A DNA stretch of 64,000 nt from Escherichia coli (GCF_002854065.1 NZ_CP024147.1); one strand, 5' to 3'. Positions 2,970 to 41,560 are shown, counted from the first letter of the stretch. Program-made: numbers and translations. Notes: generated by a model not told the origin, from the letters alone.

Positions 2970-2989
2970 TTTTTCGTTATAATTTCTTA

Positions 2990-23534: not shown

Positions 23535-23588
23535 ATGATGAATGACGGTAAGCAACAATCTACCTTTTTGTTTCACGATTACGCGCAA
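23535..23588 (+). pseudogene. sbcB: Orphaned native 5' end of sbcB (MMNDGKQQSTFLFHDY...) left at prophage attL; reads into phage DNA and stops after 17 codons
   Basis: Sequence atgatgaatgacggtaagcaacaatctacctttttgtttcacgattacg; shares the 13-bp core tttcacgattacg with the start of intact sbcB at 38811-38823. Confidence 0.7.
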
Positions 23589-23637
23589 CACCCCTGAGAA
23601 CCGCCATGAATAAGGGTTTCATGATTTGTGATTTTAG

Positions 23638-23660
23638 TTTGGTACGCAATTTGGTACACA
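23638..23660. repeat. Direct repeats TTTGGTAC(G/A)C x2, putative integrase arm-type sites (attL side)
   Basis: tttggtacgc 23638-23647 and tttggtacac 23651-23660, same orientation as repeats near int. Confidence 0.5.
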
Positions 23661-24081
23661 ACACAATTTTCACTTCAGCGGGTAGTCATCAAACTCACCA
23701 TAACGAGCATCGTTGATGATGTATGTGATCACCACAAATATCACATCTGGACTAGTTCCGTCTTCATGCGCAGGTATCTGTTCACGCCTCCCTTTCTGCA
23801 AATCCTAAAGATGAGATTTTGGGGTTTTGGGATATCTTTTTATCCTCAGTTCTCTATCCATTCTACAAAGCAGTAATGAACCATCACTATGTGATAGTGA
23901 GGCATCCGCTACATTAAGCGCAGAGAAATGATGCAGTGGTGGTCGGACTGGATTGATGAAAAGGTGTGATCGGTTAGCGCAAGACGAATCACCACCCTCG
24001 CCAGTTTTGAGTTGTTTTGCGCTAATTTTTTACCCCACCTCTGCCCCATCAAAAGAAAACCCGCTCTAGCGGGTTCATGTC

Positions 24082-25152
24082 TCAGGCCTCTTTGCCCTTC
24101 TCTATCGCTGAGGGCTTGTCAGGAAGCAATGCGCTTATACGTCCCTTAAGGTACTTGTACATTCTGACGTCGATGAATGCTGCGTATAAATACGCTAGCA
24201 CTATCGAGACAGCAATCATTTTTACCGCCCCCATAAATGGATCTCCCTCAACAATACCGGTAATCATCACAGGGAAATGGAGAAGGTACAGAGGGAAGCT
24301 GATAAACCCTAAAAACTGGACTGGTGCAGAGTAAAGGAACCGTTTAACCAGGGACTCATCATTCATGTAATCGACAGTTAGCAGGGGAAGAAATGCCACC
24401 ATGTAGAAATAATCCATCCTGTTGGTATGCGAAGGTTGAGCATAGAGCCCGGCAAAGCATACAAACAGACACATAGCCAAAAAAACATTCTTTTGAGGTA
24501 GTTTAGTGAAACTCTCGTACCATTTTAATTTTATGATCGAGTACATACCCGATCCCATCAAAAGACATGATGATGCAAAAACAAAATTGTACATCCCGAA
24601 AAGCTCTGGACTACCGAGCCCTCTGGCAGAAACAACAGCCAGATAAATAAATGCCAAAATAGAAATACATAACCTTGAAAGCGGCCCCATTCTCAAGAAC
24701 AGAACTGGAATCAACATGGACGCCCAAAATTCTATGCTGACACTCCACGAAGGTTCATTTATCAAATTGAATGATAATGGGGTAGACCCATGTATAAATG
24801 CTAAATTCGCTACCCATGTCCTGATACTAAATACGTAATCACCTGGCACATAACCACCATTAAGGCTATTTACGTAGTAAATGATTACCATTATCACTGA
24901 TGATATAAAGGTAAGAGGCCACAGTCTTGCCAGTCTATTCAAAAAATATGACGGGATAGACGCCCCATTTCTTACTGAGTGGGTAAGCACAAATCCCGAT
25001 ATGATGAAAAAATATGCAACAGCCAAGTGAGGGCCGTTGAATGGCCCATCATTTTTCCAACCAGTAACAGCATTGATGGCGTGATTTAGGAGCACTGCGC
25101 ATGCAAAAAGGCCGCGCAAACCATCAACAGCATAGAAGCGTTTAATTTCCAT
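24082..25152 (-). CDS. Acyltransferase family 3 membrane protein (OafA/Oac-like); candidate lysogenic-conversion O-acetyltransferase
   Basis: 356-aa multi-pass membrane ORF, N-terminal motif YAVDGLRGLFACAVLLNH typical of acyltransferase-3; AT-rich; sits at prophage end after the tail fibre gene; hairpin terminator 24057-24076. Confidence 0.7.
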   Translation of the reverse strand: MEIKRFYAVDGLRGLFACAVLLNHAINAVTGWKNDGPFNGPHLAVAYFFIISGFVLTHSVRNGASIPSYFLNRLARLWPLTFISSVIMVIIYYVNSLNGGYVPGDYVFSIRTWVANLAFIHGSTPLSFNLINEPSWSVSIEFWASMLIPVLFLRMGPLSRLCISILAFIYLAVVSARGLGSPELFGMYNFVFASSCLLMGSGMYSIIKLKWYESFTKLPQKNVFLAMCLFVCFAGLYAQPSHTNRMDYFYMVAFLPLLTVDYMNDESLVKRFLYSAPVQFLGFISFPLYLLHFPVMITGIVEGDPFMGAVKMIAVSIVLAYLYAAFIDVRMYKYLKGRISALLPDKPSAIEKGKEA

Positions 25153-25271
25153 AACAATTTATTTAAAAAAAGAAAAATTATACTAGAAATATATCATCAA
25201 CATCTATGCCATTGATGATTAAGTGATGGTTGTCACGGTTTTGTGTTTCTGGCTGGAATGCTGGCAGTGCT

Positions 25272-25460
25272 TTACTCGCTTGACTCAGGATCGGTGAATA
25301 CTCCATCTTCATAAATCCATCCAATTCTGCATGGTATTCCGTCTATTTTAACAACCTGATAATCATCAAAAATATGCCCCTCACCATCCCATATAACAAT
25401 ATTTACAACTATTCCATCTGTAATTAATGCATATCTCATGCAAACTCCTCCACAAGACAA
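25272..25460 (-). CDS. Small hypothetical phage protein downstream of tail fibre gene (possible tail-fibre assembly remnant)
   Basis: 62-aa ORF only; position where a tail-fibre chaperone is expected. Confidence 0.3.
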
Positions 25461-26362
25461 ATACCATCAGCACCTTCACCACCATAAAAACGCGTGGAGA
25501 AGACCTGCGTGTCATATGCGCCAGCGCCGCCACCGCCAGGGACTAATGCTTTCGCAATTCTCGGTGAATATACAGTACACTGCCCCGCTCTTCGGCTGCC
25601 ACCCCAAAAGCTTGAACCGCCGTACCCATTAAGGAACCTAGTATTATTTTGGCCATCTCCGCCATCTCCGCCGGCTAGATTTACATCACCACCAGACCCG
25701 GCAACTCCAACGCCGCCTGATGCATATACAGTGGAAGCAGTGGACGGGTTTCCGCCTGTGGCAACCATCCCACTAAATGTTGAGTTACCGCCTTTTGTTG
25801 CCTCAGTTCCGCCAGCACCGATAACCACGGCAAAGTTTGTGATGTCAGCAATATTGAACCATTTGATACCTGTAGCGCCTGCAGCCCCCCCAGCACCGGA
25901 AAAGTTATCGGTTGGGGAACCACTATTAAAAGCGCCACCTCCGCCACCACCCCCTCCCGTTAGAGTTACTTTGATGCGCTTCGTCAGCGGGTTTAGCGTT
26001 ACTGTTTTTGATGAGGTGATCCACTGCTCGGCAATCTTCCTACCTACGTATCCGTTGGTATCTCCCAAATCAAGGTTTGCGAGAGCCGTTTTCACCGTGC
26101 CATCCGATTTGATATCGCCAAACGGATTCTTGCGGCTTAACAGCAGAGCACGAAGCGCGGTAAGCAACTGGTCGTGCCGCGCCTTCTCCAGACTGGCACC
26201 AGATGCCTCAACAACGCTACAAAGTTCTTCCTGCAACATGTCAAAGTAGTCATCATCCAGATCGGTGGCAGGCGTGCCAGTCTGGGGGTTACCACGGGTA
26301 AAACCGTTCTTACCCGCGCCGAACTTATCCTTCTGCGCGGTTTTCGTGTCTATACGATGCAT
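25436..26362 (-). CDS. Phage tail fibre protein, glycine-rich
   Basis: 308-aa ORF with poly-Gly/GGxGG repeats and conserved tail-fibre N-terminus; follows baseplate genes. Confidence 0.65.
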
Positions 26363-26365
26363 GGA

Positions 26366-26950
26366 TTACTCCGGATATTTAAAAATTACGTAGGTATGCG
26401 ACGGGCAGAGTTTGTTAAGCACACACTCGACAACGGTGTCGCCCCAGATACGCAGTGCGGAATCACAGGGATCGCCACATGTCATCCAGGTGGTGTTGGT
26501 GGTGGTTGGCATGTTGACATGCCAGTAATACCGCCATTCCGGCGCATTCACCGCGTCAGTACAGGCCGATGAGCAGGTGAACGTGCTTTTGTCGTATCGC
26601 GTGATGGTGGCATCTGGTCTGCCCAGGGCAGCAAGCTGTGCAAGATAAAAATCCTCGTTGATGCCGCCCGCCAGGTTAACCTTCGCATCCAGCCGTTGCT
26701 GACGCTGGCGAAGGGTCTGCGTTCCCGCCGGAATACATTCATCCGGCAGACCGCACAGACGCTCCCAGCGGTTTATCAGTTCAGTGGTGGTGCGCGGATC
26801 CAGCTCCCGCATCAGGGCATCCGCACGCTGATGAACACGGGTTAATGACGGTGCCGCACCGGCAATCGCCGGATCGCTGGCTGACCACGCCGGACCGGGC
26901 GGCAACAGTGCCGATAACAGGCGGATGTAATCATCGTTTGTCACGTCCAT
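26366..26950 (-). CDS. Phage tail protein (Mu gp48 / YmfQ-like, DUF2313)
   Basis: 194-aa ORF in tail module between baseplate J and tail fibre. Confidence 0.5.
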
Positions 26951-27999
26951 GAAATCGTCCCCAGTACCGCCAGTTCGTTTTTCGCAATGGAGATATTGTC
27001 CACCGGTGCAAGCAACTGATGGCTGTATTCCCCGTTCGCACCGGAAATCGCCTCACTGATACGCGACACCTTCAGTTCTCCCTGCGGATAACCATCACGC
27101 AGCAGGAACGAACGCAACTCCGCGGTGATGGCAGCCCGTATTTCCGGTGTATCCGGCGTCACGCGGATATGAAAATCCACCGTATGTGCCACCGGCCTGA
27201 ACACATACAAGTCAGAACCTGCCACCGGGGCCAGTGGCCCGATATGTTGTATTGCCGCCGTTTCCGTTGATTCTTCCGGAATGGGATTAATCAGGTCACT
27301 GCTGGCAATCATCACACCGACAGTTCCCGTTCCCATCCAGTGACGGTATGTCCATGCGCGGGTAATGCCGGGCACTTCTTTAGCCCAGACGACATAGTCC
27401 CCGTCAGCCCCGCCCTGCGGCGTCCAGTAATACCGCTCAATGACGCGGGCGCGCCACGTTTCCAGATCTTCAGTATCGAATCCGCCAGTCAGGGTATCTG
27501 CAACACCGGAAGACGGCAGACCATTCACCGGCGTGACTAGGATTAATGCCGTACCGTCGTCAGCGTTACCGACCGCGCCTGCATTTGAGCAAGTGATCGG
27601 CACACGCAGGACACCACCGGAGCTGGTTGCATCGGCAGTTGCCGTGTACTGAACCAGGTCATCGCGCTGAATCACGCTCCCGGCAGTCACCTTCAGGCCA
27701 TCGCTGACACCTTCCCAGCGCATATACCCGCTGGCAGCCGTGGCCCCCTTGCGCGGACACCGTTTCATCGCAGCATGTCGCGCCAGCCAGGACTCATCGC
27801 ACAGGTCAGGCAGCATATTCATTGCCAGATAATCGATGTACCCGTAGACCGTATGCAGCGCCGCCGCATACACCTTTGCCCGCACGTCTTCATCCATGCG
27901 CCGGAGCGTGTTGCTGACGTCCAGCCTGGCGAATAAATCGTTACGGAGCATACTGATATTTTCTGCCAGCGTCGGGCGCTGAAATTCACTGTCCGCCAT
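26941..27999 (-). CDS. Baseplate J-like protein (Mu gp47-like)
   Basis: 352-aa ORF, position and size in Mu-like baseplate module. Confidence 0.55.
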
Positions 28000-28414
28000 G
28001 CGTTATCGCACTCCACAGATCATCAAAAGAAATCATTACCGGTCCGTCACGACGCCAGAGAGTGATACTGTTACCCAGTTCATTAATCCCGGTACGGCGG
28101 ATATCCAGATCAATACGGGACACCACGCCGTCATCAATCATCCATTGCAGGCATTCGCGGATATATCCCCTTACCGTCTGCACCAGCTGATTGGTCAGTT
28201 TGCTGCGCTGAAGCAGCCACAGTCGGGAGCCGTAACGGTCATTCTGTACCGCAGGCCAGGTATCCCCCCACCATCCCATCGGGACGTCGGCGTTGTCATC
28301 AGGCTCCGCCCGCCGCCAGGTAAACAGGGAAATCACCACGGCGCGGGTCAGCGGATCCAGCGGTGCGCTGGCGCAGGTGCGTTTACCGTTCACCGTCAGC
28401 CACAGTTCCATCAT
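27986..28414 (-). CDS. Phage baseplate protein (Mu gp46-like)
   Basis: 142-aa ORF overlapping neighbours, as in Mu-like baseplate operons. Confidence 0.5.
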   Translation of the reverse strand: MMELWLTVNGKRTCASAPLDPLTRAVVISLFTWRRAEPDDNADVPMGWWGDTWPAVQNDRYGSRLWLLQRSKLTNQLVQTVRGYIRECLQWMIDDGVVSRIDLDIRRTGINELGNSITLWRRDGPVMISFDDLWSAITHGGQ

Positions 28415-28959
28415 GCCTCCATCGCTTTATCAGGTTTGTCGGTGTTACTGCCCTGACCGTTCTCTCTGTGACGATGCCCGTTATAGGCAAGCCGCATCGC
28501 TGACATGGTGGTGCCGCCGGAGTCGCACAGGTCTTTCACCTGTCCGGTCACTTCCAGGTCCATTTCAAAACGTGCTTTAGGTGAATTGCGAAACGTGATC
28601 GTTTTACCTGCACCGTCCACCACGATCCCCTCCCGGGTCAGCGTCACGGACTGCCCCTGATCGTCATAGACAGCCACCTCACCCGTCTGCAGCCCTTTCA
28701 GGCGGTAGCGCCGGTCCGACACCGTAACAACCACCGCATGAGAACGGTCGCCATCCGGAAACAACACCACCGCTTCCGCACCGCTGTTTGCCCTTGCGGT
28801 AAAACCGTAGGGTTCAAGATGTTCAACCCCGGCTTTGGGTTCACCGGCAATCAGGGACACATCCACGGTCTGACATTTCGTGGCGGCACTGATGCTTTTC
28901 ACCACGGCCCGCCCAATCAGGCCGAGGAGTTGTCGCTGCATGGCTTCAATCGTCCTCAT
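28411..28959 (-). CDS. Baseplate assembly protein V / spike (Mu gp45-like)
   Basis: 182-aa ORF; position in module. Confidence 0.5.
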   Translation of the reverse strand: MRTIEAMQRQLLGLIGRAVVKSISAATKCQTVDVSLIAGEPKAGVEHLEPYGFTARANSGAEAVVLFPDGDRSHAVVVTVSDRRYRLKGLQTGEVAVYDDQGQSVTLTREGIVVDGAGKTITFRNSPKARFEMDLEVTGQVKDLCDSGGTTMSAMRLAYNGHRHRENGQGSNTDKPDKAMEA

Positions 28960-30038
28960 CAGAACGGGTCCTCCTGTACTCTGGCTTTTTTCTTTTTCCG
29001 CGCGCCGGGGGCTTCGGGTTCAGGCAGATAAGCATCAGGTGGGCCGACACGGATTTCCGTCAGGGTGCCGTTCTGGTCCTGAGTAAACGTGACTTCCGAA
29101 ACAAGCAGTTCGGTATTGTCGAAACCACAGACCGGATCAAAGACAATCACCCGCTGGTTGGGCTGCCACAGCGTACCGTTACACTGTCGCCAGCCCTGCA
29201 CCACATAGGTGGTTTCATCCGTCCGCGCCGCCCGTTGTCTGGCTTCAAAGTCCGCACGGGCAATACAGCCTGCCCCCGTAGCCTGCCCTGTCTGCCTGAT
29301 ATACATCGGACGGTAACGGGCAATAAATGCGTCCTCTGTGCGGGCCCGCAGCGCGGTGGTGGTGGCCTCACCGAAATCATCGTCGTTTCCGGCACGCTGC
29401 CCCGCCACCTGGTAAACAGAAAACCGCTCCCGGATACTCTTCTCCGTATCGCAGGAAAGGATGTTTTCCCCGAGTACCAGCGCAGTATGTGCCCGAGTTG
29501 AGCCAATACCGCCAATCACCAGCCTGCCGTGCGGGTCGTCGTAAGCCAGTGCCTGCTGCTGACCGAGTATTTTGTTGATTACCTCAATCACCGTTTCACC
29601 GTGATCAGGCTGAACATCAGGAATAACACCCGACGGCGCACCGCTGTTCACCACCTCAATGCCGAAAGGCGCAGCAAGCGCCTGCGCAATCTGCACCAGC
29701 GAGCGTCCGTTAAACTGTGTCGGTTCGGCTGCACAGTCAATCAGGTCAGCCGTCAGACTACGTCCGACAATACCGGTGCTGACCGAACGGGAATCGTAAC
29801 GAACGGGCGTCGCCTCCACCCAGCCGGTGATCACCAGCTCATCACCAATCAGCACTTCCACTTTTGAACCGTTTTTAATGCGCGGCTGAAGCGTGGTGAT
29901 ACCCTCATCTCCCGGCCACTGGCGGGTGATCTCCACACTGAAATCCCGCGCCAGCCGTTCAATACCGGCACCGATGCGCACCGATGTCCAGCCATTCCAC
30001 TCCCGGCCATTTACCCGTAGCGTGACATTGTCGTTCAT
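28959..30038 (-). CDS. Phage tail protein (Mu gp44 / P2 gpD-like)
   Basis: 359-aa ORF; position between DNA-circulation and baseplate genes. Confidence 0.5.
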   Translation of the reverse strand: MNDNVTLRVNGREWNGWTSVRIGAGIERLARDFSVEITRQWPGDEGITTLQPRIKNGSKVEVLIGDELVITGWVEATPVRYDSRSVSTGIVGRSLTADLIDCAAEPTQFNGRSLVQIAQALAAPFGIEVVNSGAPSGVIPDVQPDHGETVIEVINKILGQQQALAYDDPHGRLVIGGIGSTRAHTALVLGENILSCDTEKSIRERFSVYQVAGQRAGNDDDFGEATTTALRARTEDAFIARYRPMYIRQTGQATGAGCIARADFEARQRAARTDETTYVVQGWRQCNGTLWQPNQRVIVFDPVCGFDNTELLVSEVTFTQDQNGTLTEIRVGPPDAYLPEPEAPGARKKKKARVQEDPF

Positions 30039-31375
30039 TGCACTGGCACCTTCAGAGGGATCACCGGCACAAAGCCGGGATGCGTAATGGCATTACGCCG
30101 GATAATGTCCGCGTCACGCGCCGCGTTATCAAACCAGGTCGCCGCCAGCACCAGCGCGGGTAAAACCTCATCCGGTGTGCGCTGAATGATCCGTGCAGAC
30201 TGTTCAAGGCGCGTGTTGATATCCGCATTCAGATCTGCTTTCACCCGGCGCAGCGCCAGAAACAGCGCATCACTGGTTGTACGGGACAACTCCTTATCAA
30301 TTGCCGTATTCAGTGTGTCGCGAATGTCAGTCAGTTCTTCCCACGTCGGCAGGTCAACCGTGTTTTTCACCGCCGGTGCATTGTTCAGTGCCGGATGCGT
30401 GACGGAAGGCCAGCCAGTGCTCTGCGCGGGTGTTGTTGCCTGCCCCACTGCGGCATTCTGCATCACCGCGGAAGTTGTTGGCGCAGGCAATCGGGTGACG
30501 GCATACGCCGCTTCGCTGATTGCGGTCGTACGAAGGGTGCTGGCAACCACGTTACGCTGCTGCGTCGCCGTGGCGGTGGTTTTACTGTCCGTTTTCCAGA
30601 CGCCGCGCGGTTGCAGATCGCTGCCGAGGCTGACACCGGAAAGCGTTTTGATCATGGTGACCAGGTCGCTGGCGTTACCATAAAGGCGTTTCCCGGTACG
30701 CCACATTTTCTGCACCTGCTCAACGAAATTTTTGCCTGACGATGGCGGCGGCAGAAGTACCGAGATATCCCCCTGCAACAGCCTGGCGGCATCCGATACG
30801 GCAGAATCCACCACTTTCATCGCATCAGAAACATACCCCAGCATTATGCTGGCATTACCGATAACGTCGTTCTGCACGAAATCCGCAACACCATCGATAC
30901 TGAAACCGCTGAAGCTGTCACTGATGCAGTCATCCAGTGCAGAACAGGATGACATCAGCGTCTGCGCCGTCGCCGCACCTGATGTGGGGTAAGAGAGTTC
31001 TCCTGCTTCGACAAACTTCAGGTCAAAGCGGACAATACGCCCTTCACTTTTCGATGTGCTGACCCGAACTTCCCCGTCAACACAGACTTTCAGCTCACCA
31101 TATGTCGGGTGGACAAGCGTGCCTGGACCGGGTTTATTCAGCGCGTCAATCAGGCGATCGCGCTGGTCAAAGCAGTCATCTCCCACCACATAAGCTGTGA
31201 TGGACGGGCGGAAAGTGATTTTCCCCAGGTCTTCGGTATAGGGTTTGTCGCGGTTTGGGTATTCATGCGTTTCAACCCGACGTCCTACCGGGGCCCCTTC
31301 ATCTTCTACCTTGAACGGAACGCCGCGAAACGACGCTTCAACCAGTCTGTCTTTCCACGCCATTGTCTGCACCAA
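30035..31375 (-). CDS. Phage DNA circulation protein (Mu gp43 / N-like)
   Basis: 446-aa ORF; the expected upstream tape-measure/sheath/head genes are missing, replaced by IS1. Confidence 0.5.
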   Translation of the reverse strand: MVQTMAWKDRLVEASFRGVPFKVEDEGAPVGRRVETHEYPNRDKPYTEDLGKITFRPSITAYVVGDDCFDQRDRLIDALNKPGPGTLVHPTYGELKVCVDGEVRVSTSKSEGRIVRFDLKFVEAGELSYPTSGAATAQTLMSSCSALDDCISDSFSGFSIDGVADFVQNDVIGNASIMLGYVSDAMKVVDSAVSDAARLLQGDISVLLPPPSSGKNFVEQVQKMWRTGKRLYGNASDLVTMIKTLSGVSLGSDLQPRGVWKTDSKTTATATQQRNVVASTLRTTAISEAAYAVTRLPAPTTSAVMQNAAVGQATTPAQSTGWPSVTHPALNNAPAVKNTVDLPTWEELTDIRDTLNTAIDKELSRTTSDALFLALRRVKADLNADINTRLEQSARIIQRTPDEVLPALVLAATWFDNAARDADIIRRNAITHPGFVPVIPLKVPVQ

Positions 31376-31534
31376 TATGATTTGTTATAAGCTACTCTGT
31401 TTCAGACGCTTCTTTCGAAGCGCCAGAGAACATTTACCTTTAAGGAGAGGTATAAATGGAAATGTTTTTGCCGTTAATACTGGGTTTGTTGCTAGCCGTT
31501 TTCATAGGACGGTGGGCTTGGTAATGACTCCAAC

Positions 31535-32038
31535 TTATTGATAGTGTTTTATGTTCAGATAATGCCCGATGACTTTGTCATGCAGCTCCACCGATTTTGA
31601 GAACGACAGCGACTTCCGTCCCAGCCGTGCCAGGTGCTGCCTCAGATTCAGGTTATGCCGCTCAATTCGCTGCGTATATCGCTTGCTGATTACGTGCAGC
31701 TTTCCCTTCAGGCGGGATTCATACAGCGGCCAGCCATCCGTCATCCATATCACCACGTCAAAGGGTGACAGCAGGCTCATAAGACGCCCCAGCGTCGCCA
31801 TAGTGCGTTCACCGAATACGTGCGCAACAACCGTCTTCCGGAGCCTGTCATACGCATAAAACAGCCAGCGCTGGCGCGATTTAGCCCCGACATAGCCCCA
31901 CTGTTCGTCCATTTCCGCGCAGACGATGACGTCACTGCCCGGCTGTATGCGCGAGGTTACCGACTGCGGCCTGAGTTTTTTAAGTGACGTAAAATCGTGT
32001 TGAGGCCAACGCCCATAATGCGGGCAGTTGCCCGGCAT
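31535..32038 (-). CDS. insB: IS1 transposase InsB
   Basis: 167-aa ORF. Confidence 0.9.
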
Positions 32039-32232
32039 CCAACGCCATTCATGGCCATATCAATGATTTTCTGGTGCGTACCGGGTTGAGAAGCGGTGTA
32101 AGTGAACTGCAGTTGCCATGTTTTACGGCAGTGAGAGCAGAGATAGCGCTGATGTCCGGCGGTGCTTTTGCCGTTACGCACCACCCCGTCAGTAGCTGAA
32201 CAGGAGGGACAGCTGATAGAAACAGAAGCCAC
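31957..32232 (-). CDS. insA: IS1 InsA
   Basis: 91-aa ORF. Confidence 0.9.
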
Positions 32233-32327
32233 TGGAGCACCTCAAAAACACCATCATACACTAAATCAGTAAGTTGGCAGCATCACCCGTCAGATGAAAG
32301 AATTAATCGGTAACGAAGGAGATATTC

Positions 32328-32498: not shown

Positions 32499-32506
32499 GG
32501 TGAATT

Positions 32507-33214
32507 ATGGATTTGAATAAATTCGATGAGCCATTCAGCCCTGAAGATATCGAATGGCGAATACAGCAAAGCGGTAAAACACGCGATGGCAAGGTGTGGG
32601 CTATGGTGCTGGCTTATGTAACGAACCGGGCAATCATGAAACGCCTGAACGATGTTTGCGGCAAAGCAGGATGGCGCAATGAATACCGCGATATTCCCAA
32701 CAACGGCGGAGTTGAATGCGGCATATCAATCAGGATTGATTCCGAATGGGTAACCAAATGGGATGCTGCTGAAAACACGCAGGTAGAAGCCGTCAAAGGT
32801 GGTCGTTCCGGCGCAATGAAGCGCGCTGCCGTTCAATGGGGAATCGGTCGGTATCTGTATAACCTTGAGGAAGGTTTCGCACAAACATCTCTCGATAAAA
32901 AGCAGGGGTGGCACAGGGCAAAACTGAAGGATGGAACAGGATTTTACTGGCTCCCTCCATCGCTGCCGGGATGGGCAATACCAGCATCAGATAACAAACC
33001 ATCACCAGAAAATACCAACCAGAAATCTCCATCGGTTGACTGCGAACAAATCCTGAAAGACTTCAGCGATTATGCATCAACAGAAACTGACAAGAAAAAA
33101 CTCATCGAGCGTTATCAGCGTGACTGGCAATTAATGGCTGGCAACGAGGAGGCGCAGGCTAAATGCGTTCAGGTAATGAGCATCAGAGTTAACGAACTAA
33201 AACAGGCGGCATAA
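32507..33214 (+). CDS. Rad52/Rad22-type single-strand annealing protein (phage recombinase)
   Basis: 235-aa ORF immediately upstream of a phage SSB gene; sequence resembles Rad52-family phage proteins. Confidence 0.55.
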   Translation: MDLNKFDEPFSPEDIEWRIQQSGKTRDGKVWAMVLAYVTNRAIMKRLNDVCGKAGWRNEYRDIPNNGGVECGISIRIDSEWVTKWDAAENTQVEAVKGGRSGAMKRAAVQWGIGRYLYNLEEGFAQTSLDKKQGWHRAKLKDGTGFYWLPPSLPGWAIPASDNKPSPENTNQKSPSVDCEQILKDFSDYASTETDKKKLIERYQRDWQLMAGNEEAQAKCVQVMSIRVNELKQAA

Positions 33215-33721
33215 ATGGCAAGCAGAGGCGTAAATAAGGTGATTATCCTTGGTCGGGTAGGACAAGACCCGGAAGTTCGATACTCACCATCAGGAACAGC
33301 GTTCGCTAACCTGACAATAGCCACGTCAGAACAATGGCGAGATAAAAATACTGGCGAGCAAAAGGAATTGACTGAATGGCATCGTGTTGCTGTATCCGGG
33401 AAACTGGCTGAGGTCGTGGGGCAGTATGTGAAAAAAGGTGATCAGATTTATTTCGAGGGAATGCTGAGAACCAGAAAGTGGAAAGACCAGTCAGGGCAAG
33501 ACCGTTACACAACCGAGGTTCATGTCGGAATTAATGGCGTGATGCAAATGCTTGGCGGCATTGGCGACAGCAAACAACAAGCAGCCAGCAGGCAATCACA
33601 GAAGCCACAGCAGCAATCATCACCAGCACAACACAACGAACCTCCGATGGATTTTGACGACGATATACCCTTTGCACCAGTAACTCTCCCCTTCCCTCGT
33701 CACGCTATTCACGCAATTTAA
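33215..33721 (+). CDS. ssb: Single-stranded DNA-binding protein (phage SSB)
   Basis: 168-aa ORF with OB-fold N-terminus ([18 protein letters not shown]...) and acidic C-terminal tail DFDDDIPF. Confidence 0.85.
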
Positions 33722-33734
33722 TCAGGAGAAAATC

Positions 33735-34031
33735 ATGCCAGCGCCTCTGTATGGTGCGGATGACGCGCGCCGCTGTTCCGGCAATTCCGTATCGGAGGTG
33801 CTGGATAAATTCAGGAAAAACTACAACCGGATAATGTCGCTACCGCAGGAAACGAAAGAGGAAAAGGAATTTCGCCACTGTATATGGCTTGCAGAGAAAG
33901 AAGAACGCGAGCGAATTTACCAGACATCAATCCGACCATTCCGCAAAGCCACATATACCCACTTCCCTGAATATATCGACCCGCGCCTGCGTAATTACCG
34001 CTCACGCTATGGCGCTATCAGTAATGACTGA
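33735..34031 (+). CDS. Hypothetical phage protein
   Basis: 98-aa ORF in co-oriented phage early-gene string. Confidence 0.4.
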
Positions 34032-34040
34032 GGAATTTAC

Positions 34041-34205
34041 CATGAGAGGACTTGCATACAATCCCGGAATTCTTCCGGCAGAAATGATTATTCGCCAACG
34101 CGTAAAGCCAATGCCATCGAGAGAGGAATTGCTTAAGAGAAAGAGTTTCGGTTCTGTTAATGACAACAAATATCTGAATGCGATGTGGCTGAGTGGGAAG
34201 AAATG
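34041..34205 (+). CDS. Hypothetical small phage protein
   Basis: 54-aa in-frame segment from ATG 34041 within ORF 33889-34206; start uncertain. Confidence 0.3.
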
Positions 34206-34685
34206 AAACAAATGACACTAATTGAGATGGATGGATTTCTGAAAGGTAAATGCATCCCATGTGATTTAAAGGTTAACGAAACAAACGCTGAATATCTTGT
34301 GCGTAAGTTCGGTGAACTTGAATCAAAACTAGAAACGGCGTTGCGGGAGTGTAGTTCTGCTGGAATCACGATTGATAACCTTGAGGCCAAGTGCGCGAAG
34401 ATGGCTGCTGAAAATACCTCGCTTAAGCAATCTGAGAAGGAATTTAATGACTTTTGTCGTGAGGAGTTTAGCGAATGGGAAGATGATGTTACTGAAACCC
34501 CAGCCACCGATGCTTTCCTGGCTGAAGTACGGGCGCAGGGGGTAGAGATGTACGCAGATAACCTCGACAACGGAGCAGACGACGCAGAACGAGGTGGTTT
34601 TGATTATGCCGCTAAGTTTCTACGCGGTGAGGCGTCTAGTGTACGCTTGTTCGCCGACCAGCTTCGCAAAGGAGGCAACCAGTGA
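34185..34685 (+). CDS. Ead/Ea22-like phage protein (start may be ATG 34203)
   Basis: 166-aa ORF with coiled-coil/acidic features typical of lambdoid Ea22-like proteins. Confidence 0.5.
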
Positions 34686-35161
34686 GCAAGATTAACTATC
34701 AGGCACTGCGTGAGGCGGCGGAACGTGCAATTCCAGCAATGGAACGCCTGTTAATGTTGCCAGTTGATGATGATTTGTTAAGTGAACAGGAACTTAAAGA
34801 TTACGGTGTGGATATTGATGCGCTCAACGCCTTCAAATTTCTGACCGGACCAGAAACCGTGCTGGCGCTGCTGGATGAGCTGGAAAGAAAACAGCAATAC
34901 ATCAAATCCCGAGACCAGGAGAACGAGGATATTGCGCTAACGGTAGGGAAGCTGCGCGTTGAGCTGGAAGCCGCAGAGAAGCGCATTGCTGAGCTGGAGT
35001 TGCGGGAGGTTGTGCTTCCGCAATGCTATAGCATGTTGCATCGCGTCGATTTTGACGAGCCTTACCACACTGAAATGGTTTACAGGCAGCATCAGGTTCT
35101 TGAGGCACTGCACAACGCTGGAATAAACGTCACCGAAGCAGGTAAAGGAGAGGCATCATGA
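34682..35161 (+). CDS. Ead/Ea22-like phage protein
   Basis: 159-aa ORF, coiled-coil region (LRVELEAAEKRIAELELRE); overlaps neighbours by 4 nt. Confidence 0.5.
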   Translation: MSKINYQALREAAERAIPAMERLLMLPVDDDLLSEQELKDYGVDIDALNAFKFLTGPETVLALLDELERKQQYIKSRDQENEDIALTVGKLRVELEAAEKRIAELELREVVLPQCYSMLHRVDFDEPYHTEMVYRQHQVLEALHNAGINVTEAGKGEAS

Positions 35162-35670
35162 GCACTATCACAAGAGAATGGCTGCAGCAGGCTATCAACG
35201 ATTATGAAAGCGTTCGTGATGAGCTTCCTTTCGGGCTTGATGATTACCAGGGGAATATCCTGGCTGCCCTGCGTATCGCACTGGCATCGCTGGAAGCAGA
35301 GCCGGTGGCGTGGAAGGTAACATTCACGCAAATTGACCGTGAATATAACACGTTCACTGGTATGTATTCTGACAAAGCAGAAGTCGAACGGTGGGTGCGG
35401 CTGCATAAAGCATGTAATTTTCGGGCAGATATAACACCGCTTTATACCGCCAAGCCAGTGCCGGTAACTCCGGATGGTTGGATAAGCTGTAGTGAGCGAA
35501 TGCCAGAGGACGGTCAGCACGTAATTATTTTATGTGATGGCGCATTCGTTCTTTATGCGCAATATCGAGACGGAGAGTTTTTCGATATTGTCCGCAATGG
35601 TGATGAATTTTTCGAAACACAGAGTCGCAATGTAACCGACTGGATGCAACTACCAGAACCTCCCCTTTGA
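35158..35670 (+). CDS. DUF551-type phage protein
   Basis: 170-aa ORF; C-terminal region (PDGWISCSERMPEDGQHVIILCDG) resembles DUF551. Confidence 0.5.
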   Translation: MSTITREWLQQAINDYESVRDELPFGLDDYQGNILAALRIALASLEAEPVAWKVTFTQIDREYNTFTGMYSDKAEVERWVRLHKACNFRADITPLYTAKPVPVTPDGWISCSERMPEDGQHVIILCDGAFVLYAQYRDGEFFDIVRNGDEFFETQSRNVTDWMQLPEPPL

Positions 35671-35766
35671 TAGCTAAGCTTATACATATCTTTTACATCA
35701 GCAATCTATTGTTAATCTCCAATCAATGTTACGTTGTCATCTCTCTCATGCTTTGGAGGTAGTGAT

Positions 35767-35958
35767 ATGTCTTGTCCAAAATGCGGTTCTGGAAATATTG
35801 CAAAAGAAAAAACAATGCGTGGATGGTCTGATGATTATGTGTGCTGCGATTGCGGATACAACGACTCTAAAGACGCATTTGGAGAGCGTGGTAAAAACGA
35901 GTTTGTCAAAATTAATAAAGAACGCGAAGGCGGTGATGCTGCCAACTTACTGATTTAG
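35767..35958 (+). pseudogene. Phage zinc-ribbon protein with C-terminus altered by IS1 insertion (native end ...EREGNEKS reconstructed across the IS)
   Basis: CxxC...CxxC motif (MSCPKCGSG...YVCCDCGY); GGAGGT RBS 6 nt upstream of ATG 35767; reading frame runs into the IS1 terminal repeat. Confidence 0.55.
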
Positions 35959-35986
35959 TGTATGATGGTGTTTTTGAGGTGCTCCA

Positions 35987-36262
35987 GTGGCTTCTGTTTC
36001 TATCAGCTGTCCCTCCTGTTCAGCTACTGACGGGGTGGTGCGTAACGGCAAAAGCACTGCCGGACATCAGCGCTATCTCTGCTCTCACTGCCGTAAAACA
36101 TGGCAACTGCAGTTCACTTACACCGCTTCTCAACCCGGTACGCACCAGAAAATCATTGATATGGCCATGAATGGCGTTGGATGCCGGGCAACCGCCCGCA
36201 TTATGGGCGTTGGCCTCAACACGATTTTCCGCCATTTAAAAAACTCAGGCCGCAGTCGGTAA
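35987..36262 (+). CDS. insA: IS1 InsA
   Basis: 91-aa ORF. Confidence 0.9.
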
Positions 36263-36684
36263 CCTCGCGCATACAGCCGGGCAGTGACGTCATCGTCTGC
36301 GCGGAAATGGACGAACAGTGGGGATACGTCGGGGCTAAATCGCGCCAGCGCTGGCTGTTTTACGCGTATGACAGGCTCCGGAAGACGGTTGTTGCGCACG
36401 TATTCGGTGAACGCACTATGGCGACGCTGGGGCGTCTTATGAGCCTGCTGTCACCCTTTGACGTGGTGATATGGATGACGGATGGCTGGCCGCTGTATGA
36501 ATCCCGCCTGAAGGGAAAGCTGCACGTAATCAGCAAGCGATATACGCAGCGAATTGAGCGGCATAACCTGAATCTGAGGCAGCACTTGGCACGGCTGGGA
36601 CGGAAGTCGCTGTCGTTCTCAAAATCGGTGGAGCTGCATGACAAAGTCATCGGGCATTATCTGAACATAAAACACTATCAATAA
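36181..36684 (+). CDS. insB: IS1 transposase InsB
   Basis: 167-aa ORF. Confidence 0.9.
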
Positions 36685-36823
36685 GTTGGAGTCATTACCC
36701 GCGAAGGCAACGAAAAAAGCTAATTTATTTATTCATATATGAAAACAATGTAATAAATATTCGAATTGAAGAATTGAAAGAACACCAAGCCGCCTGATGG
36801 CGGTTTTTTATTGGAGACAAGAA

Positions 36824-37168: not shown

Positions 37169-37245
37169 CGCCTCACACTCGATGAGGCCTGTACATATCT
37201 GATAGATCCGCTATATGGCGGTTTATTTTTGCCTGGAGAATTAAG

Positions 37246-37437
37246 ATGACCGATACCAGCCTGATTCCTGAGAAAGAAGTGATGAACAAGCTCGGTGTTT
37301 CATCACGTCAGACAATCTGGAACTATACCAAACGGCACGGATTTCCGAAGCCAGTCAGAACCCACCCCAAATCATACCTTCGTGAAGCTGTTGAAGGGTG
37401 GATTCTTAACGGTGGCGTTAATCAGAAATGCTCCTGA
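37246..37437 (+). CDS. alpA: AlpA-family phage transcriptional regulator / excisionase-like
   Basis: 63-aa ORF with HTH (VSSRQTIWNYTKRHGFPKP), convergent with and adjacent to integrase. Confidence 0.7.
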   Translation: MTDTSLIPEKEVMNKLGVSSRQTIWNYTKRHGFPKPVRTHPKSYLREAVEGWILNGGVNQKCS

Positions 37438-38596
37438 TGTGCCAGAACAATTTATCAGCGTGAAGCTCATACGCTTTGCGCTGAGCCTCTATCCAGTCGT
37501 GTTTATTGTATACGGACATTATCCCGCCAAGTTCATGACCGAGCATTCGCTCAGTAACATGAGGCTCGACATTCATCTCGGACAGACGTGTAACAAGCGT
37601 TCTTCTGAAATCGTGTGTTCGCCAGTAACCTAGATCCATCCCTCCCCTTATTCTATTTACGAATCGGTTGGCTGCAGCGATGCTGATCGGTTTGTTTATG
37701 TCTTCTCCAGGGAAAAGAACATCATTGTACGTTGTCATGGCCTTTTCGAGGAAAGGCTTAATTTGTTCGAAGATTGGACGGCGGATAACATTACCCATCT
37801 TGCTATGCTCTTTCGGTACGGTCCATACGTTTTCCAGCAGGTCAAATTCTGTCTTTTTTGCCAGCCTAAGCTCTGAGAGCCTCGCCCCCCACAGCATAAG
37901 CATCTGATGAAGTAGCTTATTTGACGTAGACGCACGGCTTCTTTCAATAGCAAGCCAAATCTTAGCCAGTTCGTGATACGACAGTACCCGATCCCCTACC
38001 TCAGCGCGGGAGCCGAAGTCCCTTGGTTGGATGCTCATAATTGCGCAACTATCTATCAACTGACGCCGCATGCACCAACTTATTGCTGATCTTAGTTGAC
38101 TTAGCACCTGCCTTGCTCGGCGTGGATTATCTCTTTCTTCTTCGGTAAGCAGGTCAACCCATTGCTTAACCGTGATAGAAGATGCCGGACGATTAGGAAA
38201 GGCGTCATGCATGCGCTTCATAACCGTTGATCGGTAAAGTGCCTGGGTCTTTTCTCTGAGAGTTGTAGAGACGTAGTTGTCGAACCAGTAGTCGAGACAC
38301 TGGGCGACCGTCATGGAGTTCTCCACCTTCTCTTCAAAATAAGTGCGTGGATCCGTTCCTGAGAAATAGAGCTTTCGCAAGTCAGCAGTGATCTGTCTGG
38401 CATCCTTCAAAGACAGGGATGGGTATCGACCAAGCCCAAGTCGATTAGGCTTGCCATGCCAGCGATAGCGGTACTGGAACTGGATGACCCCCTTCGGTGA
38501 AATTCGTACGCTGAGGCCATCGGCATCAGCCACTTCTTGTGGGCCCGAATATGGTTTACCATAAATACTACGCAGTTTTGTGTCGCTTATAGCCAT
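37418..38596 (-). CDS. int: Tyrosine-type phage integrase (P4-type, N-terminal arm-binding domain)
   Basis: 392-aa ORF with integrase catalytic region (HDFRRT...LGH...Y); adjacent to attR. Confidence 0.85.
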   Translation of the reverse strand: MAISDTKLRSIYGKPYSGPQEVADADGLSVRISPKGVIQFQYRYRWHGKPNRLGLGRYPSLSLKDARQITADLRKLYFSGTDPRTYFEEKVENSMTVAQCLDYWFDNYVSTTLREKTQALYRSTVMKRMHDAFPNRPASSITVKQWVDLLTEEERDNPRRARQVLSQLRSAISWCMRRQLIDSCAIMSIQPRDFGSRAEVGDRVLSYHELAKIWLAIERSRASTSNKLLHQMLMLWGARLSELRLAKKTEFDLLENVWTVPKEHSKMGNVIRRPIFEQIKPFLEKAMTTYNDVLFPGEDINKPISIAAANRFVNRIRGGMDLGYWRTHDFRRTLVTRLSEMNVEPHVTERMLGHELGGIMSVYNKHDWIEAQRKAYELHADKLFWHIRSISD

Positions 38597-38605
38597 AAAT
38601 AATAT

Positions 38606-38648
38606 TTGGTACGCTCAGAAATAATGGTTTGGTACACATCTGGTACAC
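38606..38648. repeat. Direct repeats TTTGGTAC(G/A)C x3, putative integrase arm-type sites (attR side)
   Basis: tttggtacgc 38606-38615, tttggtacac 38628-38637, ctggtacac 38640-38648; matching pair on attL side at 23638-23660. Confidence 0.5.
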
Positions 38649-38777
38649 AATATCACATGGACAACAGCGCACAGTAAACAACTATATTTGACGTTCGTAG
38701 ACATACTCAGGTGAAAAAATGGTTGTTTTTCGAGTTATAACAGACAGTTAATTAACTACAGTGGACAATGCTAGACA

Positions 38778-40202
38778 ATGACAGACGCAGATAAACAACC
38801 TACCTTCCTCTTTCACGATTACGAAACCTTTGGCACGCACCCCGCGTTAGATCGCCCTGCACAGTTCGCAGCCATTCGCACCGATAGCGAATTCAATGTC
38901 ATCGGAGAACCCGAAGTCTTTTACTGCAAGCCCGCTGATGACTATTTACCCCAGCCAGGAGCAGTATTAATTACCGGTATTACCCCGCAGGAAGCACGGG
39001 CGAAAGGAGAAAACGAAGCCGCGTTTGCCGCCCGTATTCACTTGCTTTTTACCGTACCGAAGACCTGTATTCTGGGCTACAACAATGTGCGTTTCGACGA
39101 CGAAGTCACACGCAACATTTTTTATCGTAATTTCTACGATCCTTACGCCTGGAGCTGGCAAAACCGCAATTCGCGCTGGGATCTGCTTGACGTGATGCGC
39201 GCCTGCTATGCCCTGCGCCCGGACGGCATCAACTGGCCGGAAAACGACGACGGTCTGCCGAGCTTCCGCCTGGAACATCTCACCAAGGCCAACGGTATTG
39301 AACACAGTAACGCCCATGATGCGATGGCCGACGTTTACGCGACCATCGCCATGGCGAAGCTGGTGAAGGCCCAACAGCCAAAGCTGTTTGATTATCTGTA
39401 TGCCTACCGGGGCAAAAACAAGCTGATGACGCTGATTGACGTCCCGCAGATGAAGCCACTGGTGCATGTCTCGGGAATGTTTGGCGCCTGGCGCGGAAAC
39501 ACCAGCTGGATTGCGCCGCTGGCCTGGCATCCGGATAACCGTAATGCGGTGATCATGGTCGACCTGGCGGGCGACATCGCCCCGCTGCTCGAGCTGGATG
39601 CCGATACGCTGCGCGAGCGCCTGTATACGCCGAAGGCCGAGCTCGGCGACAGTTCGCCGGTGCCGATTAAGCTGGTGCATCTGAATAAGTGCCCGGTGCT
39701 GGCGCAGGCCAATACCCTGCGCCCAGAAGACGCTGACCGTTTAGGCATTAACCGACAGCACTGCCTGGATAACCTGAAACTGCTGCGCGATAACCCGCAG
39801 GTGCGCGAGAAGGTGGTGGCGATTTTTGCTGAAGCCGAGCCGTTTGTCGCATCGGACAACGTCGACGCCCAGCTTTATAACGGTTTCTTTAGCGACGCCG
39901 ACCGCGCGGCGATGAAAATCGTGCTGGAGACCGAGCCGCGCAATCTGCCGGCGCTGGACATTACCTTCGCCGACCCGCGTATTGAGAAGCTGCTGTTTAA
40001 CTTCCGCGCGCGCAACTTCCCCGGCACGCTGGATGAAAACGAGCAACAGCGCTGGCTGGAACACCGTCGGCAGATCTTCACCCCGGAATTTTTACAGGCC
40101 TACGCCCAGCAACTGGAGATGTTGTACGGTCAGTATGAGGGGAATAACGAGAAGCTATCGCTGCTGAAGGCGCTGTATCAGTACGTGCAGGAGATTGTTT
40201 AA
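38778..40202 (+). CDS. sbcB: Exodeoxyribonuclease I, with phage-supplied promoter and first ~11 codons (MTDADKQPTFLF...)
   Basis: 474-aa ORF with DnaQ-like exonuclease N-terminus (FLFHDYETFG); hairpin terminator 40211-40241 downstream. Confidence 0.9.
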   Translation: MTDADKQPTFLFHDYETFGTHPALDRPAQFAAIRTDSEFNVIGEPEVFYCKPADDYLPQPGAVLITGITPQEARAKGENEAAFAARIHLLFTVPKTCILGYNNVRFDDEVTRNIFYRNFYDPYAWSWQNRNSRWDLLDVMRACYALRPDGINWPENDDGLPSFRLEHLTKANGIEHSNAHDAMADVYATIAMAKLVKAQQPKLFDYLYAYRGKNKLMTLIDVPQMKPLVHVSGMFGAWRGNTSWIAPLAWHPDNRNAVIMVDLAGDIAPLLELDADTLRERLYTPKAELGDSSPVPIKLVHLNKCPVLAQANTLRPEDADRLGINRQHCLDNLKLLRDNPQVREKVVAIFAEAEPFVASDNVDAQLYNGFFSDADRAAMKIVLETEPRNLPALDITFADPRIEKLLFNFRARNFPGTLDENEQQRWLEHRRQIFTPEFLQAYAQQLEMLYGQYEGNNEKLSLLKALYQYVQEIV

Positions 40203-41494: not shown

Positions 41495-41560
41495 AACGAA
41501 TCCCAGGTGATGCTGCCAACTTACTGATTTAGTGTATGATGGTGTTTTTGAGGTGCTCCA

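Follow-up and report, generated by a model that had tools for sequence, protein, structure and literature searches.

A cryptic prophage of 15,240 bp interrupts sbcB in the 64-kb Escherichia coli segment analysed here (the window), and alignment places the insertion at codons 12-16 of the gene and assigns the first 11 codons of the presumably expressed copy to phage DNA. By the same alignments, sbcB is split and the reading frame of exonuclease I (ExoI) is regenerated with a phage-encoded N-terminus. Stx2c phages and Shigella phage Sf101 use this attachment site, known as "type 2851", which had already been published and annotated, so that the finding is correct but ordinary. Taken as a whole, the interval is very probably a decayed temperate lambdoid phage that was integrated by tyrosine-integrase recombination at the "2851-type" site in sbcB. 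The site and its junctions comprise the following features, in window coordinates.

23333..23534, + strand: dacD-sbcB intergenic host DNA, the native sbcB upstream and promoter region stranded at attL; collinear with K-12 (98.5%) to 23583.
23535..23597, + strand: sbcB' stub of 20 codons, with the native start and 16 host codons followed by phage DNA; reads MMNDGKQQSTFLFHDYAQHP and then stops.
23571..23583, + strand: attL core TTTCACGATTACG; on the opposite strand it reads CGTAATCGTGAAA, the attP core published for 2851 and Sf101.
23584..23672, + strand: P' arm with two direct TTGGTACRC repeats (23639-23647 and 23651-23659), presumed arm-type Int sites.
38597..38777, + strand: P arm with three GGTACRC repeats (38606, 38629 and 38640); presumed int promoter (- strand) and sbcB promoter (+ strand).
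38778..38810, + strand: phage-encoded replacement start and first 11 codons (MTDADKQPTFL), present in the HK140/Sf101 attP and missing from the K-12 attB.
38811..38823, + strand: attR core TTTCACGATTACG, encoding F-H-D-Y and the first base of the next Glu codon within the ExoI motif.
38778..40202, + strand: hybrid intact sbcB of 474 codons, opening with MTDADKQPTFLFHDYETFG; phage-derived to 38810, E. coli-type to about 39043-39161, then Kluyvera-like.

The initial annotation had the native sbcB start (23535-23583) breaking off into phage DNA, and these first 49 nt are indeed identical to the 5' end of K-12 sbcB. On the left, identity to K-12 extends to 23583 (98.5% over 2,084 bp), and the counterpart of 23333..23534 is flanked by dacD and sbcB in the K-12 annotation; on the right, K-12 identity picks up again at 38794. 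The intact sbcB described at 38778, starting MTDADKQP and rejoining at the same 13-bp core (38811-38823), was likewise placed and read correctly. The core TTTCACGATTACG occurs twice in the 64-kb window (23571-23583 and 38811-38823), both times on the + strand, with no copy on the opposite strand. Around it, attL and attR share an imperfect match of 30 nt (26/30 identical), and their local alignment scores 40 where shuffled sequences gave a mean of 17.7 (sd 2.3, maximum 30).

A four-way comparison of att sites with HK140, Sf101 and K-12 bore out the proposal that a cryptic prophage replaces the 5' end of sbcB. In this comparison attL has the structure B-O-P' and attR the structure P-O-B', while attP is P-O-P' in the virion-derived genomes of HK140 and Sf101 and attB is B-O-B' at the empty K-12 site. 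Since the reciprocal halves are seen in the HK140/Sf101 attP and the K-12 attB, the new 5' end of sbcB is phage-borne; the alignment of attL and attR to the uninterrupted K-12 gene, which had been suggested as a check, found the core identity. The same P' arm is found in the HK140 and Sf101 attP, 26 phage records, phage 2851 among them, carry the P arm at 97.8% identity or higher, and the two arms at the two junctions jointly rebuild the free-phage attP. GGTACRC arm-type repeats were recovered at both ends as reported, two in P' and three in P. The longer form TTGGTACRC is present four times in the window, two per arm, against 0.67 expected by chance, a count of four being reached in 1 of 100 shuffles; the additional, fifth repeat copy is CTGGTACAC at 38640. 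The five GGTACRC repeats, above chance and kept in the HK140/Sf101 attP, are putative Int sites.

The phage attP consists of the 181-bp arm beside the divergent int, a 33-nt imitation of the sbcB 5' coding sequence and the 13-bp core, in which strand exchange splits sbcB at the F-H-D-Y codons of the ExoI exonuclease motif. The host promoter and first 16 codons stay at attL as the 20-codon stub, and the phage arm with its imitation start is joined in frame to sbcB codon 17 onward at attR. The fusion at attR being in frame, ExoI is thus regenerated with 11 phage-encoded N-terminal residues and is one residue shorter. The predicted hybrid product aligns full-length to the E. coli ExoI structures 4JRP and 1FXX. 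FLFHDYETFG is conserved at 80/80 loci of other Enterobacteriaceae, and the phage-replaced residues precede this motif. No native sbcB beginning like the phage version, and hence a possible donor, was found among the 80 genome loci examined, the nearest native starts being Citrobacter-type MNDGKQ(Q/H)PTFLFHDY and Phytobacter MSDDERQPTFLFHDY. Upstream of the start codon, the phage arm aligned to the native sbcB upstream region with a score of 20 (shuffles: mean 17.1, maximum 29), which is no excess over chance, and the arm as a diverged copy of the native upstream region was therefore rejected.

The initial annotation regarded sbcB as undescribed as an integration site, which did not hold: Stx2c phage 2851 and Sf101 are both published as integrating there, at an identical 13-bp core, CGTAATCGTGAAA (PMC4159516), and the gene is among the four standard Stx-prophage sites in O157. 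The Int of Sf101 is 99% identical to those of 2851, HK544 and mEp234 (PMC4159516). In GenBank, this segment carries the label "attP type 2851" in HK544 and mEp234, and the segment is also in phage 2851. An int adjoining a phage-type sbcB 5' end was found in about 581 of 5,426 complete E. coli genomes, about one in nine. The integration of phage 2851 was reportedly first described by Strauch et al. in 2008; a full-text literature search on restoration of the sbcB 5' end by a prophage, whose reach did not include that original description, returned nothing relevant.

Between the junctions, the remnant contains the following features.

23628-23876, + strand: 82-aa ORF overlapping the S24/UmuD-like remnant; matches Sf101_0017.
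23673..23924, - strand: decayed C-terminal remnant of an S24/UmuD-like gene, HK140_028 homologue (tblastn 55% to residues 45-129, E 5e-26).
24082..25152, - strand: acyltransferase (O-acetyltransferase-like) cargo gene directly inside attL (PHROG 3333 O-acetyltransferase, E 2e-34).
25272..31375, - strand: eight ORFs for SfV/SfI-like myovirus tail-fibre, baseplate wedge, baseplate hub and DNA-circularisation proteins (PHROG matches).
31520..32287, - strand: IS1 without target-site duplication (flanks GGTGGGCTT versus CGTCAGATG), read as a deletion or rearrangement junction.
32507..35958, + strand: early-left genes erf, ssb, abc2 (anti-RecBCD), Ea22-like and other small ORFs (PHROG 1097, 44 and 656).
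35932..36699, + strand: IS1 with a 9-bp target duplication CGCGAAGGC, a simple insertion.
37246..37437, + strand: intact excisionase/AlpA-like regulator (PHROG 66), 63/63 identical to the HK140 and Sf101 proteins.
37418..38596, - strand: intact tyrosine integrase of the 2851/Sf101/HK544 type, 392 aa (PF13356 and PF00589).

No intact ORF was found on the - strand at 23673..23924. The acyltransferase gene has its own terminator (24076-24057), and its product matched no NCBIfam family. The tail and baseplate segment (25272..31375) has 97% nucleotide identity to SfV, SfI, SfII and SKA5 and is collinear at 98% with the prophage of E. coli CUWW06 (NZ_CP182139.1), which occupies the same att site as a full 38,310-bp element with a complete module set and gam/bet/exo early genes. 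The early-left region matches Sf101, HK544 and Stx phages. None of the ORFs of the interval belongs to a head, terminase, lysis, replication or immunity module, and the element is therefore regarded as cryptic; PADLOC, run on the cargo and early genes, found no known defence system.

The integrase gene lies 181 bp from the new sbcB start. Its product matches Phage_integrase (PF00589, E 2e-16) and Arm-DNA-bind_3 (PF13356, E 2e-17), is identical at 390/392 residues to HK140 Int and at 387/392 to Sf101 Int (98.7-99.5%), and shows on inspection of the translation putative catalytic Arg, His-x-x-Arg and Tyr motifs (WGARLSEL, THDFRRT and SVYNKH) in the expected order within PF00589. The initial description of a P4-type integrase beside attR stands for the Arm-DNA-bind_3/Phage_integrase architecture and does not extend to the NCBIfam integrase-domain model PRK09692, whose cut-off is missed (52.5 versus 434 bits); as judged from these domain matches, Int is P4-like in architecture and outside the curated model. 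With both att sites present and int and xis intact by sequence, the element may still be excisable.

After integration, an IS1-associated deletion probably took away about 23-25 kb, with the tape measure and the genes for head, terminase, lysis, replication and immunity, and a second IS1 inserted. The 15.2-kb element that remains is non-inducible and keeps attL and attR, an intact int and an intact xis, and, by attL, its O-acyltransferase-like cargo gene. Collinearity with CUWW06 stops at the IS1 at 31520..32287, and a target duplication is present at the other three IS1 copies and absent only at 31520.

The two sides of this IS1 have different closest relatives, the left half (tail, acyltransferase) being CUWW06-like and the right half (erf/abc2) Sf101/HK544-like, and the remnant may therefore go back either to one mosaic phage or to two elements that became joined at the IS1. 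That two prophages were fused at 31520-32287, as tandem lysogens or by recombination of an incoming with a resident phage, instead of one mosaic phage losing its middle, is possible but on the unlikely side. The left 10 kb is 98% identical to CUWW06 while the early region has erf/ssb/abc2 where CUWW06 has gam/bet/exo, and the boundary IS1 lacks a target duplication, all as a fusion would have it; however, lambdoid phages are routinely mosaic, the Sf101 genome itself being described as highly mosaic (PMC4159516), and a single IS1-mediated adjacent deletion accounts for the same features. No complete E. coli genome was found with both halves together. The Arm-DNA-bind_3 domain of Int, typical of P4-like integrases, and the small size of 15 kb could also suggest a P4-like satellite or integrative island in place of a prophage remnant, an origin that we consider very improbable and indeed refuted by the gene content, given the baseplate, tail-fibre and lambdoid early genes, the complete phages and 38-kb prophage that are its closest relatives, and a PRK09692 match far under the cut-off. 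Least probable, to the point of being negligible, is the reading that the initial annotation had named as its own counter-case, in which the 38778 N-terminus is the ordinary host sbcB allele and the 23535 fragment an unrelated local duplication, without site-specific integration. No support for it was found, and the phage sequences refute it: the MTDADKQP segment and the 181-bp arm are in free-phage genomes, contiguous with the P' arm seen at attL, and an MTDADKQP-type N-terminus is native at 0/80 genome loci.

A phage-supplied promoter for sbcB is suggested by the geometry of the locus, in which the host promoter lies 15 kb off at attL and int is divergent from sbcB; transcription of sbcB would have to begin within DNA of phage origin, the P arm being the most plausible place. 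Three terminator-like hairpins on the + strand upstream of sbcB (36787, 37208 and 37739) make read-through from further upstream unlikely. Scanned strictly for a sigma-70 consensus, neither the phage arm nor the native upstream region nor 36650-38850 yielded a promoter at threshold. With a relaxed matrix, the best + strand candidate in the P arm was TGGACA at 38658 and TATATT at 38683 with a 19-nt spacer, scoring at about the 90th percentile of random windows; the relaxed scan also did not pick out the native sbcB promoter region. Because the native region is missed as well, these scans have little power either way, and promoter prediction, failing on phage arm and native region alike, cannot settle the expression of sbcB.

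Two possible consequences for ExoI were weighed. Integration might silence or strongly lower sbcB, the frame being restored without an adequate promoter in the phage arm, so that lysogens would be ExoI-poor and the ORF would be intact only through recency. The strict scans, empty in the P arm, and the relaxed scan, with only a weak candidate, fit this view, as does the O157 literature in calling the site "disrupted" or "occupied"; we nevertheless hold it to be unlikely, since the same scans miss the native promoter region and a full-length sbcB ORF persists in remnants that are old and heavily decayed. The remnant in E. coli 100416 (NZ_CM128593.1) has a truncated int, yet an intact sbcB is read from the phage-derived 5' end, and in the Enterobacter L062 fossil, where 27 int codons remain, the intact gene still has the phage-derived 5' end. 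At four lysogen-type loci of other genera the gene is likewise full-length, and it carries no pseudogene flag in the four E. coli matches listed with this junction. Intact sbcB in remnants even more decayed than the present one argues that the arrangement has been functional over evolutionary time. Alternatively, by replacing the sbcB promoter and first 11 codons, the phage might put ExoI under the control of its arm, through a 181-bp region shared with the divergent int promoter and the Int/Xis sites, a suggestion that we advance with considerable doubt. If true, ExoI levels would change upon lysogeny and in induction, which could help a phage with Erf and anti-RecBCD Abc2 because ExoI degrades the 3' single-strand ends on which recombination of this kind relies; in the same reading, once the prophage is lost the phage 5' region can stay on as the permanent 5' end of sbcB, as in Enterobacter L062.

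The intact sbcB is a three-part mosaic of phage, E. coli and then Kluyvera-like DNA, and five E. coli genomes have its 3' allele. The foreign tract, at least 25 kb long, sets in about 300 bp beyond attR and extends across his and on into the O-antigen cluster. This neighbouring cluster has a GDP-heptose pathway by NCBIfam matches, which ruled out an O8/O9 mannan-type cluster. Import of the Kluyvera-like tract by the prophage (specialised or lateral transduction) is unsupported, as the 230-350 bp by attR are E. coli-type and not donor-type, and the terminase-to-tail order of CUWW06 appears to point to attL/dacD, away from sbcB/his. The region is a good example of chromosomal mosaicism: phage, E. 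coli and Kluyvera-like DNA together make up one gene, which lies where an imported tract with his and the O-antigen cluster begins.

These observations are of practical use chiefly in annotation: a prophage in sbcB should not lead to the gene being scored as disrupted, because the frame is regenerated with a phage-encoded N-terminus. If the phage arm alters ExoI expression, Stx2c/Sf101-type lysogens and non-lysogens would differ in a recombination and repair nuclease.

Among known systems, the integration module of 2851, Sf101, HK544, mEp234 and HK140 has the same core, arms, imitation sbcB 5' end and dacD-sbcB position as the copy described here. In contrast to the 2851/Sf101 group, the present element has been degraded by IS1 to a remnant of 15.2 kb that lacks head, lysis, replication, immunity, stx and oacB genes, and its morphogenesis genes are those of an SfV-like myovirus baseplate, where 2851 is lambda-like and Sf101 P22-like. 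CUWW06 and 100416 share with it a hybrid sbcB allele of 100% identity, an acyltransferase of 91% ("acyltransferase family protein" in CUWW06) and an int-to-tsuA stretch of 99.8-99.9%. In 100416 only the acyltransferase, one IS1 and the truncated int are left, and the element here is thus an intermediate state of decay between CUWW06 and 100416, with a different early region. The spot immediately inside attL is the usual place of lysogenic-conversion genes. Sf6 and Sf101 carry an O-antigen acyltransferase by attP, and here a gene for an acyltransferase-3-like membrane protein, with a terminator of its own, is located just inside attL; its product is identical to Sf101 OacB at 83/356 residues (23%) and the gene is in the opposite orientation, so that orthology is not supported and its role in O-antigen modification is putative.

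A published parallel in arrangement is Rac in ttcA of K-12, for which experiments showed that the two protein variants differ in function and that excision depends on XisR (PMC4632033); nothing comparable for sbcB was found in the literature searched. The two cases differ in integrase, core and target gene. Rac is nevertheless inserted at the 5' end of its target with int adjacent, supplies a phage variant of the N-terminus and leaves the original 5' fragment as the pseudogene ttcC' (PMC4632033), and likewise here attP contains an in-frame substitute start and N-terminal codons and the host 5' fragment is found at the far junction, as in a 5'-end-replacing insertion of the Rac/ttcA type.

Within the 64-kb window there are exactly two copies of the 13-mer TTTCACGATTACG (23571-23583 and 38811-38823), each on the + strand and with none on the opposite strand, and the sequences quoted in the initial annotation were located where it had placed them. 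Around this core, the left and right junctions (attL and attR) share a 30-nt imperfect match (26/30; local alignment score: 40, shuffle mean: 17.7, shuffle maximum: 30); similarity upstream of the two start codons was not beyond chance (score: 20, shuffle mean: 17.1). The left copy carries the K-12 start, MMNDGKQQSTFLFHDY, followed by AQHP and a stop codon, forming a 20-codon stub at 23535-23597. The right copy, MTDADKQPTFLFHDYETFG..., opens a 474-codon ORF at 38778-40202 that aligns with the E. coli exonuclease I (ExoI) structures 4JRP and 1FXX over its full length.

Four attachment sites were compared, namely the empty site of a K-12 derivative, the free-phage genomes of HK140 and Sf101, and attL and attR of the window. 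At the empty site, the core stands between its left and right host flanks. In HK140 and Sf101, the window's 181-bp arm likewise lies beside int, followed by the same imitation start, ATGACAG(A/G)C(A/G)CAGATAAACAACCTACCTTCCTC, by the core, and by the post-core sequence of the window's attL. The order is therefore host-core-phage at attL and phage-core-host at attR, as expected. To the left of the core, mismatched positions follow the host at attL and the phage at attR, so strand exchange is placed within the 13-bp core. This comparison shows that the insertion is a site-specific integration and that the new sbcB 5' end is phage DNA, the arm and imitation start in the free phages bearing out the phage-borne 5' end that had been proposed. 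The core codes for F13-H14-D15-Y16 and the first base of E17 (K-12 numbering); D15 and E17 are metal-binding residues of the ExoI motif in the DEDDh family. The peptide FLFHDYETFG was found at all 80 sbcB loci fetched from other Enterobacteriaceae in one scan that took a single genome for each species, hence a stable attB. The possibility that the MTDADKQP N-terminus is the ordinary host allele did not hold, as this start is native in no species among these 80 loci.

Features of the element and of the neighbouring O-antigen region (window coordinates, strand, description)
23628-23876, +, 82-aa ORF overlapping the S24/UmuD-like remnant, annotated as hypothetical in Sf101
23673-23924, -, decayed S24/UmuD-like C-terminal remnant, 55% identity to HK140_028 residues 45-129
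24082-25152, -, acyltransferase (PHROG O-acetyltransferase) directly inside attL, own terminator at 24076-24057
right of the acyltransferase, tail-fibre, baseplate-wedge, hub and DNA-circularisation genes, 97% identity to SfV, SfI and SfII
31520-32287, IS1 between tail/baseplate and early genes
between the two IS1 copies, erf, ssb, abc2 and Ea-type early genes
35932-36699, second IS1 copy of the element, before xis and int
37246-37437, AlpA-like excisionase, 63/63 residues identical to both the HK140 and Sf101 proteins
37418-38596, -, tyrosine integrase, Pfam Arm-DNA-bind_3 and Phage_integrase
55418-63961, -, O-antigen-type cluster next to gnd

The integrase is full length, with identities of 390/392 to HK140 Int and 387/392 to Sf101 Int. 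Its earlier designation as P4-type agrees with the domain architecture, but not with membership of the NCBIfam integrase-domain model PRK09692, for which the match was far below the cut-off. The GGTACRC repeats noted at both ends were recovered as four copies of TTGGTACRC in the window, all within the att arms (0.67 expected), and a fifth copy, CTGGTACAC, at 38640. The same repeats occur in the HK140 and Sf101 attP and are plausible, putative arm-type Int sites.

From core to core the element measures 15,240 bp and, from left to right, holds the S24/UmuD-like remnant, the acyltransferase, tail/baseplate genes, IS1, early genes, IS1, xis and int. No head, terminase, lysis, replication or immunity genes were found within it, so a functional phage is impossible. 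The 82-aa ORF, which starts inside the repeats of the P' arm (the phage side at attL) and lacks a PHROG match, is perhaps not a genuine gene. The acyltransferase has no NCBIfam match and is only 23% identical to OacB of Sf101. An acyltransferase or acyltransferase-like ORF is the one cargo kept in the most decayed remnants, those of E. coli 100416 and an Enterobacter locus (L062), the ORF of the latter being only 25% identical; this retention may indicate selection for a lysogenic-conversion function.

In E. coli CUWW06 the prophage at the same site spans 38,310 bp with all modules present, its left 10 kb and its int-to-sbcB end being collinear with the window at 98% and 99.8%, whereas strain 100416 has a still shorter remnant of the acyltransferase, IS1 and a truncated int. 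Four IS1 copies are present in the 64 kb (8635-9402, 31520-32287, 35932-36699 and 41506-42273), three of which have clean 9-bp target duplications (AAAATCCCC, CGCGAAGGC and CGAATCCCA). The copy at 31520-32287 has none, which identifies it as the site of the deletion or rearrangement by which the prophage lost its middle part. As the early region differs, with erf/abc2 in the window and gam/bet/exo in CUWW06, the ancestor may have been either a single mosaic phage or a pair of elements that became joined at IS1. The IS1 at 41506 breaks the thiosulfate transporter gene tsuA/yeeE, which is intact in the near-identical strain 100416. Three tRNA-Asn(GTT) genes, at 9758-9833 (-), 11582-11657 (+) and 13991-14066 (+), are arranged as in strain 100416, with an IS1 directly upstream of the first.

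Attachment at this position extends to other genera, as seen in loci of the scan.

Integrases and remnants upstream of sbcB in other genera (locus coordinates)
L011, L014, L023 and L044, about 1627-3040 in each, integrases of ~60% identity
L062 (Enterobacter sp. BIGb0383), 2819-3050, fossil attR, 27 int codons adjoining an acyltransferase-like ORF and dacD

The ~60% identical integrases (4/80 loci; Kluyvera sichuanensis, a Pseudocitrobacter MAG, Citrobacter sp. wls619 and an Enterobacter MAG) lie in the same position and orientation, but have TGTACT-type repeats in place of the window's GGTACRC, and their substitute sbcB 5' end, VTVKNDNIQRTFLFHDYE, is a different one that apparently begins with GTG. 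A wider integrase clade thus targets the sbcB 5' end, and each of its members brings its own imitation start. By its sequence, the Enterobacter sp. BIGb0383 site is a fossil attR; int is reduced to 27 codons and sbcB is a full-length ORF reading from a phage-type 5' end.

Past the core, sbcB of the window is ~99% identical to K-12 for roughly 230-350 bp, after which, between 39043 and 39161, the number of mismatches per 100 bp climbs from 0-2 to about 20. This is a second, independent junction within the gene, beyond which identity to K-12 is about 76%. The remaining 1.1 kb of sbcB and the downstream tsuB/tsuA are 92-93% identical to Kluyvera georgiana and 76-78% to Escherichia; sbcB is therefore built from three sources. 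This 3' allele occurs in only 5 of the 5,426 complete E. coli genomes. Low identity to K-12 (73-86%) runs on through tsuBA, plaP, yeeZ, the his operon, ugd and gnd to the window end, and yeeY, yefM-yoeB and wzzB are absent from the tract (39043-64000) compared with K-12. An Rfam STnc240 sRNA match lies between plaP and yeeZ (44025-44101, -) and a His operon leader at 45248-45369 (+); like the tRNA-Asn genes, both were unremarkable. The cluster at 55418-63961 encodes the GDP-D-glycero-D-manno-heptose pathway (gmhA, hddA, hddC and gmhB), a sugar-nucleotide 4,6-dehydratase, a 719-aa GT2 and FkbM methyltransferase fusion and GT4 glycosyltransferases, which suggests a (deoxy)heptose-containing polysaccharide. 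The tract has the appearance of an intergeneric import, at least 25 kb long and including the O-antigen locus, with its left edge ~300 bp from attR; no evidence was found for the prophage as its cause.

As for expression, the native sbcB upstream region has been left behind at attL, at a distance of 15 kb, int transcription runs away from sbcB, and terminator-like hairpins lie on the + strand at 36787, 37208 (annotated in HK140) and 37739. Any transcription of sbcB would most plausibly begin in the 181-bp phage arm. Scans for a consensus promoter detected none in this arm, nor in the native region; a relaxed matrix scan gave a weak candidate, TGGACA-19 nt-TATATT at 38658-38688 (~90th percentile of random windows). 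In the old remnant of E. coli 100416, sbcB is still a full-length ORF, as it is at the Enterobacter L062 site. Full-length sbcB in old remnants argues, indirectly, more strongly for expression from the phage arm than the promoter scans do, and we infer that a phage-supplied promoter is plausible.

The structural interpretation in the initial annotation is correct, but its impression that sbcB was not a described integration site did not hold. In E. coli O157 the gene is among the four standard insertion sites of Stx prophages, and a survey of 346 strains found it occupied in 26.9% (PMC8309913); it is also recognised as a site used by Stx1a phages in O26 (PMC10042803). GenBank records of HK544 and mEp234 label the same segment 'attP; prophage attachment site (type 2851)', and it is found at ≥97.8% identity in 26 phage records, including phage 2851. 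An int beside a phage-type sbcB 5' end is present in 581 of the 5,426 complete E. coli genomes. In the literature searched, outside which the original phage 2851 description lay, the regenerated sbcB frame is not spelled out and its promoter not examined; the consequence for ExoI expression is thus at most under-described. The recurrence of the att site across genera and the mosaic sbcB are modest additions. Prophage replacement of a gene 5' end is itself documented for Rac in ttcA, where the TtcA N-terminus is altered and ttcC' is left behind (PMC4632033). From the published site, the GenBank labels, the genome counts and this precedent, the structure is therefore already known, and the feature is a common one.
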